A stretch of 64,000 bases of DNA from contig NC_086097.1 of assembly GCF_963921235.1 (NCBI RefSeq), forward strand, positions 130,326,001 to 130,390,000, given 5' to 3'. Under the pieces are notes generated by a model that was given only the letters and a program-made list of their open reading frames with translations, ran no database searches and was not told the DNA's origin. Position numbers and translations under genes: made by a program. The stretch is from Mobula hypostoma (lineage: Eukaryota). Below are positions 17,931 to 20,812 of this stretch, piece by piece; position 1 is the stretch's first letter, and each line of letters begins with the position of its first letter.

Positions 17931-18434
17931 ATTCTGCCCACAAATGACAGATGTGGACATGCTTGAACTTTACACAGCGAATAGAGTGTCCGAGTTTTCA
18001 GTCATTTGAAAAGACTTTCACACATTGAGTTAATTATTGTCTGAAAAATTCTTTGCTTCGTTCAGTACTTATGAATCTCGCTTTGGCCCAACTCGCCTTG
18101 TATGAGTTGAAATATGACATTGTAAATCATCTTTAATATTTTTTTATTAGAAGGCAGCGCCGAGTTGGATTTGGATTTGACTTTTAGTCCCACATGACAC
18201 ACACATCTGAGCTGAACTTGGCAATGGTGTTTGAATAATTATAAGCAATGATACCATACTTTCTTCCACATATTAAAGTATAGATTAATCAAGAAAAATC
18301 AGATAATACAGAATACATTAGCTTTTAGAAGAAACTACAAACAGCATTCTGTCAAGTGGATATATCTTAATGGTATTTATAATATCAACATAAAAAGCAG
18401 GAAAATTTAAAGAATCCCTGGCTTCATGGTATTA

Positions 18435-18925
18435 TCATCATTCAGGCCTGACATAGTCACTCTTAGTCAGAAACCTTGAAGCAGGCAGTTTTGATAGAAC
18501 TGACAGTGGCTTGGGAAGACCGGATTGAGGAGGCATTCGACTGTAAGTGGGACAACTACTTAGAGCTGGTAGAGCAGTGCCAGAGATAGGGGCAGCTGAC
18601 ACTTTCCAAGTCTATAGAGGTGGGATGTAGAGGCTTTACTGGCTGTTTGCTGTGCAGAACCTCTCCCTTTGGCATCACAGAATTGCAAAGCAAAAGGCCA
18701 TCAGGACTGTCACAAAGCCTGCTGAATGTACCTCCGGATTGTTCTGGATCAAGAGCTGTGACCCGCTGACCAATACTGCTGGGATCCAACCTGGGGTTGA
18801 TCAACCCTGTTTGGGTCACCTAGGCAAAGGTGTCTGATGTTGAAAGACTTGAAACACCCAATGACTCTAGGTTACGTCACTGATGATGTGTCCCGGGACA
18901 TCTAGGATGTATCTCAGCATCTCAT
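18435..18925 (+). mobile_element. HERO-like (R2 superfamily) non-LTR retrotransposon 3' fragment: restriction-like endonuclease plus structured 3' UTR
   Basis: RPDIV (18444-18458), then after a frameshift KQAVLIELTVAWEDRIEEAFDCKWDNYLELVEQCQR*G...IEVGCRGF, then KAIRTVTKPAECTSGLFWIK. This is a PD-(D/E)xK REL domain of the HERO type. Confidence 0.8.
18829..18892 (+). ncRNA. Candidate permuted/pseudoknotted hammerhead-like RNA
   Basis: GUC (18832-34), GAAA (18851-54) and CUGAUGA (18880-86), with stems I and III in correct register and a weak stem II; see finding. Confidence 0.45.
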
Positions 18926-19681
18926 CAGATAAATTATACATGTAATCATATGTCTTAGGGGTTTGTTATTTGGAAGTGATTATTAACAATTTCCTTCATA
19001 TTCTGTATTCTTTTATTGTCTTATTAAATTCAATGCTTCTTTTTTCATTCTGTTCATCCTTGGGTTTTAGTGCCATTTATTGGAATATTTCTTCCACTGA
19101 ACAGTACATTAAAACTACAGAAGAGCTTTGCTTGATCAATTTCTTAGCCTACTTGATTTGTATGGGGAAGTAATTTGATAAGAGACTAGTGTGATGTTCT
19201 TGCTCCAAAATATACATACTGTGGCATATTATGATATGCAATATTATAATATTATGAATGCTATATGTAAATGAATATGTTTAAATGAGTATATGATGTA
19301 GGCACCATTTATTGTTGTGGCTTACTGTTAGTCTGGGATCAACTACACTGTAGACATCATGGTGCTTCATGTATTCCAGTAGTTTAACTTTGTATGTAAC
19401 ACTCCCCAAATACATGACATATACAACAATGGAACAATACAGAGACAATTAATATATCCGCTGCTCAGGAATGCAAGTAGCACAATCATTATGTAACAGG
19501 ACTAACAATTCGGAGATAGGCACTAAGATTTTGCAGATATGAATTCACAAAAGTGGCTGGAAATTTGAACATTCAGTTACATAAATTTTTAAAAATGCTC
19601 ATGTCTGTACTGGTGATCTGGATACTTCTGGGTTGCTCCTAAAATTGAGCTAGGCCAGGTATCTTTTAGGAAGTTCCAAGT

Positions 19682-20812
19682 TCAAAGTTCAAAGTTCAAA
19701 TTAAGATTATTATCAAAGTACATACTGTATAGATTCATTTTCTTGCAGGCATTCAATGTAGAAGAAAGGGATACCACAGAATCAATACAAAATTCACACA
19801 AAGACTGGCAAACAACCAATTGGCCAAAGAAGACAAACTGTGCAAATACAAATAACAATAACAATGATAATAATAATAATAAATGATTTATTATCACAGA
19901 TAGGACAATCTATAATAACCATCCACATATAATTCACAGGATTAATAAATATAGCCACTCCAAACACACAACATGCGGAAATCAATGTGAAAAACACCAG
20001 AAATATGCTAAATTAAAGGAGGAAATTGAAAGACTATGGAACATGAACAGGGTATACATTGTCCCAACAATAATATCTATGACTGGCGTCACCCCAAAGT
20101 CACTACACAATATCATTAAACAGTTAGGCCGACACAGCAATGTTTATGTAAATCTCCGGAAAGCAACAATACTAAACACCACTGGAATAGTCCAAAAATT
20201 CCTAACAATTGAGAAATGAGTGTGCTTGGCTATGAGTTGAGAAAAATAAATAATCCTGCAAATATGAGTTGTAGAGTCCTTGAAAGAGAGCCCTTAGGTT
20301 GTGAAATCATTTCGGTGTTGAGATGAGTGAAGTTGTCCATGCTAGTTCAGGATTCTGATGGTTGAAGGTTAATAACTGTTCGTGAACCAGGTAGTGTGGA
20401 ACGTGAGGCTCCTGTAGCTCCTTCCCAATTGCTGCAGCATGAAAAATGCAAGGCCTGCCTGGATGGTGGGGGTCTGTGATGATGGATGTTGTTTTCTTGT
20501 GGCAGTGTTCCTTGTGGATATGCTTAATGGTAGAGAGGGCTTTTCCTGTGATGGACTGGGCTGTATTCACTACTTTTTGTTTGCTTTCCTGTTCTTGGAC
20601 ATTGGTATTTCCATACCAGGCCATAATTCAGCTGGCCAAGGACACTCTCCATTCTGCATCGATAGAAGTTTGTTAAAGTTTTAGATGACATGCCAAATTT
20701 GTGAAAACATCAAGGAAAGAGGTGCTGCCATGCCATCTTTGTAGTGACACTTACGTGCTGGTCAGGGCAGATCCTCTGAAATGATAACACCAAGGAATTT
20801 AAACCAACTGAC
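19682..20812 (-). mobile_element. Rex1/Babar-type LINE 3' portion, interrupted by an R4/Dong fragment
   Basis: ORF 20307..20624 MAWYGNTN...KVVNTAQSITG...SIITDPHHPG; (ttcaaag)n tail at 19682. Confidence 0.8.
19885..20250 (+). mobile_element. R4/Dong-like non-LTR retrotransposon 3' fragment next to a (TAA)n tract
   Basis: IITDRTIYNNHPHII...KHQKYAKLKEEIERLWNMNRVYIVPTIISMTGVTPKSL...LRKATILNTTGIVQKFL (REL domain). It follows (TAA)5 at 19868-19882 and ends aaaaataaataat. Confidence 0.75.

Follow-up and report, generated by a model that had tools for sequence, protein, structure and literature searches.

The 3' UTR of a HERO-like non-LTR retrotransposon of Mobula hypostoma contains a hammerhead core that, judged by its recurrence in related loci, is real and not a product of chance, and whose strands almost certainly follow the order P0, P1, II, NC, III, cut, I, II', GAAA, III', k-turn, NC', I', CUGANGA, P0'. 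There is equally little doubt, on the same comparisons, that stems I, II, and III would cross one another and that P0 and P1 would stand between A9 and G10.1. Our main reading, to which we give a probability of about 0.5, is that this is a hammerhead of new wiring, kept by a clade of elements encoding a reverse transcriptase (RT) and a restriction-like endonuclease, and that it enables replication via a unit-length circular RNA. Relative to type SGC, a hammerhead published with the same block order, the new features are two inserted helices (P0 and P1), a k-turn that brings a second helix with it, and junctions at which copies stand head to tail. The interest is in the family and not in the copy found in the window (the whole stretch of 64,000 nucleotides analysed, whose numbering is used throughout); that copy is probably an inactive, truncated, and decayed by-product.

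The window copy is a 5'-truncated, decayed non-LTR retrotransposon copy that retains the end of the ORF and the 3' UTR (18407..18921, + strand), as delimited by alignments of other copies, which mostly start at 18407-18415 and end at 18921. The best of these other copies are 75-79% identical to it, and the host assembly (3.5 Gb) holds 2480 candidate matches to its DNA. Its upstream part (18407..18800, + strand) is a remnant of the C-terminal endonuclease region, with stops and frameshifts, aligned by tblastn to residues 979-1052 of protein P0031 (51%, E 9e-14), and its broken ORF matches the C-terminal end of ~1080-aa proteins, many of them from named teleost fishes, that carry RT and zinc-knuckle domains. 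In the full-length relatives the RVT_1 domain is present and zf-RVT falls below threshold; the C-terminal RPD...E motif we take to be restriction-like endonuclease-like, and a comparison of the C-terminal profile with solved structures gave no matches. These proteins thus show the layout of a HERO-type element, one ORF in which RT and a zinc knuckle are combined with a restriction-like endonuclease at the C-terminus. The HERO label itself comes from the initial annotation and is presumptive; no named HERO reference sequence turned up among the matches. The label agrees with the HERO descriptions in the accessible parts of PMC4640811 and PMC9004415. Viral contigs yielded no pattern matches and no confirmed protein relatives. 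A young family with long open frames occurs at many places in the same genome (~60% identity, no stops), so that the clade has recently been active there.

Relatives were sampled as 80 metagenome loci, chosen by the C-terminal protein alone and ~37-65% identical to the query. A descriptor whose only requirements are the two core blocks, with GAAA after the cut and CUGANGA after GAAA, plus pairing in stems I and III, matches in its strict form 48 of the 80 loci (46 of the 68 with at least 200 nt after the ORF), compared with no match in 186,178 nt of opposite strand and two in 6800 shuffles; one of the two control matches, in L170, looks like a true motif further downstream, and the other, in L167, like chance. 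With one mismatch allowed per block, 63 of the 80 loci match. The 17 misses comprise 10 contigs that end too soon, a variant core (L124), a motif located further on (L170), two partly deleted loci (L159 and L162), and three loci (L136, L148, and L154) with no recognisable motif despite enough downstream sequence; L148 has a CUGAAGA in a different setting. The 48 motif loci form 23 clusters at 80% identity, with a mean of 58% between clusters. The initial annotation, made from the window alone, had proposed a hammerhead core in a non-circular, pseudoknotted order within the 3' UTR of a retrotransposon with RT and restriction-like endonuclease, and the related loci support it: the core conservation and the stem covariation by which it expected such a ribozyme to be recognised are both seen, in the 48 loci with the motif and in the covarying stems I, II, and III. 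Its letters and coordinates were likewise correct, for GUC (C at 18834), GAA (18851-53), CUGAUGA (18880-86), stem III (18829-33/18854-58), and stem I (18835-40/18874-79).

All parts of the predicted domain lie on the + strand. P0, which would close the whole domain, has its 5' strand at 18778..18788 and its partner after CUGAUGA at 18887..18897 (9 of 11 positions paired in the window copy), the latter being the strand from which the initial annotation had built stem II; P0 is closed in the majority fold. The P1 hairpin (18789..18812, 6 of 8 paired) carries a self-complementary loop, TGATCA (18798-18803), a candidate kissing loop, and in the closest families the stop codon of the ORF is the TGA at 18798-18800 (the ORF end in L012). 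Stem II joins 18813..18817, with G10.1 at 18813, to 18846..18850, with 11.1 at 18850; it is paired at 5 of 5 positions, two of them G-U, and two C>T changes in its 3' strand represent decay. The non-canonical (NC) helix of the k-turn pairs 18819..18824 with 18866..18871 (6 of 6). The non-bulged strand of the k-turn (18825..18827) reads C-G-A in the family and C-A-A in the window copy, where it is broken (position 18826 is G in 17 of 29 copies and A in 10); the bulged strand (18860..18865) consists of the 3-nt bulge, G-A, and then 3b. Stem III has its 5' strand at 18828..18833, ending in G16.2-U16.1, and its 3' strand, preceded by G12-A13-A14-A15.1, within 18851..18859. The cut is predicted 3' of C17 (18834), a position at which all 48 related loci have C, A, or U. 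Stem I pairs 18835..18840 (1.1-1.6) with 18874..18879 (2.x) at all 6 positions, one of them G-U, and a linker at 18841..18845, of 0-6 nt across clusters, connects stem I to stem II at their distal ends, just as the initial annotation had supposed for its short linker. The CUGAUGA core, C3 to A9, occupies 18880..18886 (a U3-A8 variant is found in L124), and the 3' tail (18898..18921) runs to the element's fixed terminus, with 28 of 58 alignments stopping at 18921 and most others within 2-5 nt of it. All core letters are kept in the window copy, as in 7 of 29 old copies; its defects are the G-U at 10.1-11.1, the broken k-turn, and the incompletely paired P0 and P1.

Genomic copies run unbroken through the predicted cut: the 21 nt that follow it have 2792 exact matches, of which 2653 are preceded by RTH, and 67 of the 69 junction copies that reach it continue through. 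This bears out the caveat of the initial annotation that the template must have been uncut or re-ligated. Three candidate footprints of the cut were rejected. Truncation at the cut had been considered on account of a count of only 546 of 2792 with GTGTM before it; given the RTH count, this low ratio reflects other subfamily letters. The idea that junction copies start at the cut was dropped with 67 of 69 intact, and addition of bases by template jumping was found in 0 of 27 copies examined, exactly one base being present at position 17 in all 27. The ends of the elements are fixed, 41-51 nt after C3 in related families, and in some loci they are followed by the beginning of another unit. Among the 37 metagenome loci with at least 300 nt downstream, 5 pass from the 3' end straight into a 5' UTR and ORF start with a shared spacing, and L005, of the window's own subfamily, has a head-to-tail junction too. 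The junction pattern has 82 matches in the M. hypostoma genome and none in the control. In the young family, 95 of 113 exact 5'-start motifs have a 3' end at the exact spacing; the 4-nt spacer is unchanged in 86 of the 95 junctions, implying ~2.5% decay per site, and with such decay ~95 would be expected if every start has a junction. For 4 of the first 6 5'-start motifs on contig C1, another cut-site match follows 3.52-3.65 kb downstream. Head-to-tail copies with two ribozymes one unit apart, as expected of replication via a circle, are thereby present. No trimers were found among 41 listed 5'-start motifs on five contigs, where no two lie within 262 kb. Copies ending just inside the 5' start are not in excess (104 found vs ~120 expected from junctions alone), and 1 of 78 old copies extends 11 nt; variable internal starts were rejected on these counts, which also show no sloppy-start footprint of a continuous template.

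Some further observations concern sequences near these junctions. The 5' UTRs past the junction in L094, L111, L113, L131, and L160 share short repeated motifs and a C-rich/G-rich block before the ORF, a possible promoter or translation element. At G000:C1:3472447-3473344 (- strand) a 5'-start motif stands 877 nt from a ribozyme match, possibly in an internally deleted, non-autonomous element, and in L044 the 3' end of the element is followed by ~30 nt of 5'-start sequence, after which the sequence diverges.

From the junctions and the intact cut sites, it follows that the template is unbroken at the cut as well as at the 3'/5' junction. A circle derived from a two-ribozyme transcript would provide such a continuous template and, at the same time, a job for the ribozyme. 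The transcript of a tandem (head-to-tail) locus would carry two ribozymes, which the self-complementary P1 loops would bring together and align to exchange halves. Two cuts would free a unit RNA whose two ends would re-form one ribozyme; after the cut, the halves would stay paired via P0, II, III, and NC (~28 base pairs), with the ends held for ligation, and either the ribozyme itself or a ligase of the host would close the nick. From a fixed internal site ~45 nt past CUGANGA, the element protein would then reverse-transcribe round the circle, and any copy reaching full length would continue across the junction and so rebuild the tandem. The same cycle has been proposed for Penelope elements, as described in part of PMC4209133, and it has been shown up to the circles for retrozymes, where, according to the accessible part of PMC7229834, sealing was mostly the work of a host ligase. 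Self-ligation by retrozyme hammerheads is inefficient (1-3% in the accessible part of PMC7229834), and a host ligase may thus be needed. Against a circle stand the lack of trimers among the 41 listed motifs and the lack of an excess inside the 5' start. The cost of a circle is precise internal priming, which is not known for an R2-group enzyme. The reading in its full detail is held more tentatively, at rather below even odds: a widespread clade of autonomous R2-group elements would replicate via a 3.6-kb circular RNA, with a seventh hammerhead wiring, a split block C with a kissing loop, and a k-turn cage; two ribozymes would kiss, cut, and swap halves; and the RT would prime internally and roll across the junction.

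A linear template is possible, if on balance unlikely. The ribozyme would be active, the P1 loops would pair two RNAs in one particle, and the RT would jump from the 5' end of one to the 3' end of its partner, the ribozyme serving as a switch that destroys RNA not claimed by the element protein. Such a scheme offers a free 3' end for priming and explains both the sharp 3' end and the P1 loop; the R2 RT does jump between template ends; and in some families the final codons fall within P0 and P1, so that translation could control folding. However, the jump would need ~100% efficiency without added bases (95 of 113 junctions, as expected if all starts have one), and R2 template jumps add bases. 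A kill switch alone would also be a weak reason for a core kept over 37-64% protein identity. Less probable still is a pseudo-LTR-like read-through, in which tandem masters would be transcribed from the upstream copy, with uncut RNA as template and cut RNA as an mRNA led by the 3' half of the ribozyme, in the manner of the 5' HDV-like ribozyme of R2. This would account for the lack of trimers among the 41 listed motifs and has a parallel in the 5'-end ribozymes that aid translation in R2-type elements and RNA viruses (accessible parts of PMC13725137 and PMC6765202), but the cut RNA would also serve as template and give copies beginning at the cut, of which there are 2 in 69 at most, and the downstream ribozyme would cut too.

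Both the circle and these alternatives presuppose cleavage, for which the family offers several signs at positions outside the descriptor's requirements (position 17, G16.2, C11.1, C15.2, and position 7). Of the 48 loci, 17 have C at position 17, another 17 have A, 14 have U, and none has G, and a second subfamily in the M. hypostoma genome has A17; G16.2 is kept in 46, C11.1 in 43, C15.2 in 46, and U16.1 in 45 of the 48, and position 7 takes all four bases. The A15.1-U16.1 pair is A-U in 23 of 23 clusters. The 3-8 pair, compared in 50 loci, is C-G in 48, U-A in one, and U-G in one, which makes a single compensatory event; the U3 with A8 occurs in L124, where all stems are intact, and the same swap from C3-G8 is found in Penelope hammerheads (accessible part of PMC4209133). 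The patterns at position 17, at the core neighbours, and at the 3-8 pair fit selection on cleavage, and we are fairly confident in predicting that the ribozyme, at the level of the family, cleaves after position 17. What speaks against catalysis is that helices inserted at A9-G10.1 could abolish it, the only precedent met in the accessible part of PMC4209133 for an insertion there being one extra base. The domain might alternatively lack catalysis and serve as a scaffold for protein binding, its hammerhead fold retained while it labels the 3' end for the RT; this we consider quite improbable. The genomic copies are uncut at the site, the inserted junction may distort the A9/G10.1 site, and R2-group proteins bind structured 3' UTRs, all as a scaffold would have it, but a scaffold gives no reason for C, A, and U but not G at position 17, nor for the swap of C3-G8 to U3-A8. 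The contig end of L134 (1279) falls exactly at the predicted position 17; with ~11 contigs ending in this stretch such a coincidence has a chance of ~7%, and it was not counted as a sign of cleavage.

The wiring of stem II is where the fold departs most from that first proposed. With the 5' strand taken 20-22 nt upstream of the cut (18813-17/18846-50 in the window), at least 4 Watson-Crick pairs form in 20 of 23 clusters, compared with 2 of 22 when stem II is built from the strand after CUGANGA, as in the initial annotation (18888-92/18846-50), which was in error here. When strands are swapped between clusters, the upstream register scores 98 vs 65.3+-3.7 (0 of 5000 swaps) and the alternative 53 vs 45.7+-3.2 (98 of 5000, a slight excess), counts that overstate independence, as do those from shuffles, since the clusters are related. 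The partner of the strand after CUGANGA lies instead near the end of the ORF, and the two form P0, for which 82 of 88 cells are paired in 22 clusters in a fitted register. The P1 hairpin takes up the stretch from there to G10.1, and in 16 of 23 clusters the P0/P1 junction is free of unpaired bases. In stems I, II, and III, 112, 109, and 113 of 115 cells are paired, with G-C at 10.1-11.1 in 18 of 23 clusters; pairing was a selection criterion for stems I and III, and the registers of P0, P1, and II were fitted, so that the controls for the latter three are generous. An unfitted MAFFT alignment of 19 sequences was made up of the window, L124, and 17 of the 23 cluster representatives (L126, L131, L139, L153, L161, and L164, with other lengths or cut ends, were left out). 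In it, 89.8% of the cells of stems I, II, III, and NC are paired, vs 62.4+-1.5 in the control and 35-48% with slid partners, and two-sided changes number 111 vs 30.3 in the control. As the strand after CUGANGA is taken by P0, and stem II comes from upstream, the block composed of CUGANGA and its two neighbouring stem strands (block C) is split, with two helices between A9 and G10.1; the direct link, or link of one or two bases, usual between A9 and 10.1 in a hammerhead is replaced by P0 and P1.

A plain type-SGC fold, with stem II from the strand after CUGAUGA, is very improbable, except perhaps as a minor alternative state. In the window's family 4 of its 5 positions can pair, and it shows a slight excess over controls, in the swaps given above and on the unfitted alignment (54.7% of cells paired vs 47.8+-3.4 in shuffles, 13 of 500), but slid registers score as well (37-51%), its stem II forms in few clusters, and its stem II strand is occupied by the covarying P0. 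The additional helix once suggested between 18813-18 and 18862-67 is present in the minimum-energy fold, but it competes with the covarying helices. Weakest of all, a chance arrangement in one decayed copy, for which the descriptor expectation of 0.067 per 64-kb strand (30 dinucleotide shuffles) leaves some room beside the single match in the window (18834/18851/18880), is refuted by the 48 of 80 related loci with the motif at the same place and with covarying stems. Two divergent families, in L153 (873-950) and L164 (1954-2037), have U15.2-A16.2 (an AUA triplet) and a longer span from II to III, and are without the k-turn signature.

The split fold recommended by these comparisons has two elaborations, the first of which is the loop of P1. 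A palindrome of at least 6 nt is centred in P1 in 15 of 23 clusters, vs a mean of 3.8 and a maximum of 11 in 2000 shuffles, and it is represented by four different words (TGATCA in 10, TGGCCA in 2, GACGTC in 2, and AGTACT in 1); a GACG tetraloop caps P1 in 4 of 23 clusters, two of them GACGTC cases. The stop codon was rejected as the cause of the palindrome, as the two coincide in only 2 of 23 clusters. Palindromic loops and GACG tetraloops both serve RNA dimerisation in retroviruses (accessible part of PMC516450), and we infer that the RNA of the element may dimerise through the P1 loop. P1 thus resembles the retroviral dimer-initiation hairpins of PMC516450, as far as these are described there, in its palindromic loops or GACG tetraloops, and differs in being built into the ribozyme core of a non-LTR element, with dimerisation only predicted. 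Of two palindromes for which the initial annotation had suggested a part in dimerisation or in competing folds, that at 18794-18807 is the top of this conserved hairpin, which points to dimerisation, and that at 18889-18900 depends on letters that only the window copy has (18895 is G there, against A in all 29 other copies) and was dropped.

The second elaboration is the k-turn. Its signature, a 3-nt bulge with tandem G.A and A.G, caps stem III in 42 of the 48 loci; by cluster, it is present in 18 of 23 and absent in five; other bulge lengths are seen in 0 of 23 clusters for 2, 4, or 5 nt, and in 2 of 23 for 1 nt. The window copy, with its changed strand, does not form it. In the 18 clusters, 89 of 90 cells of the NC helix are paired vs 46.4+-4.9 upon swapping, its register having been set by k-turn geometry only and not selected for pairing, and the 3b.3n pair obeys the rule for ion-induced folding (accessible part of PMC4382518) in 15 of 18, with ~7 expected at even base use. 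By turning the arm of stem III back on itself, the putative kink would allow I, II, and NC to meet at their distal ends via linkers of 0-6 nt, an arrangement that may replace the usual contact between loop I and loop II. In L119, L121, L126, and L133, an apparent second k-turn-like internal loop in P0 and GACG or GATG tetraloops on P1 were noted by eye.

The block order has a published precedent. The initial annotation had held that the order UH, GAAA, CUGANGA lies outside types I-III, which is right; the order is not new, though: Eckert et al. (2023; PMC10085705) named it type SGC (HRIMA-1) and, in the accessible part of that work, report cleavage at 0.007-0.19 per min, place it in metatranscriptomes only and in no genome of a known organism, and assume block C to be inseparable. 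As far as type SGC is described there, the element shares with it the S > G > C order, the three crossing stems, the short I-II linker, and the full core. However, block C supplies stem II in type SGC, whereas the element, with its split block C, draws stem II from an upstream strand; a helix joins the outer strands of I and II in type SGC, whereas in the element those strands are part of the NC helix and P0, with a k-turn instead; and the hammerhead of the element is found in an animal genome, in an autonomous retrotransposon. The hammerheads of Penelope-like pseudo-LTRs, as characterised in part of PMC4209133, are of type I, with a minimal stem III, are associated with a GIY-YIG endonuclease and a telomerase-like RT, and are without pseudoknot, k-turn, or inserted helices. 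Metazoan non-LTR retrozymes (accessible part of PMC7229834) are similar in their tandem copies, double self-cleavage, circular RNA, and proposed rolling reverse transcription, of which cleavage and circle are only predicted in the element; they differ in being non-coding, of 170-400 nt, and of canonical type I, the element being a 3.6-kb coding unit. The HDV-like ribozymes of R2 and L1Tc (accessible parts of PMC6765202 and PMC13580325) are also self-cleaving RNAs in non-LTR elements, as predicted here, and R2 shares the endonuclease type; they are, however, of another class, are located at the 5' end, and make a cut that defines the end of the inserted copy, whereas copies of the element run through the cut.

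No prior description of a hammerhead in HERO, or of a k-turn hammerhead retrotransposon, was found in the literature searched, the scope of which excluded most subscription journals, Repbase Reports, patents, bioRxiv supplements, and Fell et al. (2025) with its supplement, which lists Hero elements and may carry annotations of their UTRs. The accessible parts of PMC10162972, PMC3088659, PMC9004415, and PMC4640811 contain nothing on such a hammerhead, the last two only describing HERO; within the same literature the term type SGC occurs only in PMC10085705, and a 2026 paper (PMC13725137), in its accessible part, cites only Eckert and two others for variant hammerheads. Rfam showed neither a hammerhead nor any other relevant family in this region of the window or at 10 related loci. 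As far as this literature goes, the element would present the first non-circularly permuted hammerhead from an animal genome, in thousands of copies. A split block C contradicts the assumption behind the scheme of six permutations, and for this reason current descriptors and Rfam models miss the hammerhead of the element. The junction counts, in turn, make the long-standing proposal for Penelope (circle, more-than-unit cDNA, tandem) testable in an R2-group element. R2-group elements are now used for gene insertion, and a ribozyme in the 3' UTR of the template, together with internal priming, would affect the design of such insertions.

Two further features lie downstream of the element in the window. 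Positions 19396-19505 (+ strand) resemble a decayed U6 snRNA (Rfam RF00026, 20.2 bits, E 0.097, below the gathering threshold), probably a pseudogene. An open frame of 110 aa at 19887-20219 (+ strand) resembles the C-terminal endonuclease region of another non-LTR element, which we take to be R4/Rex6-like.
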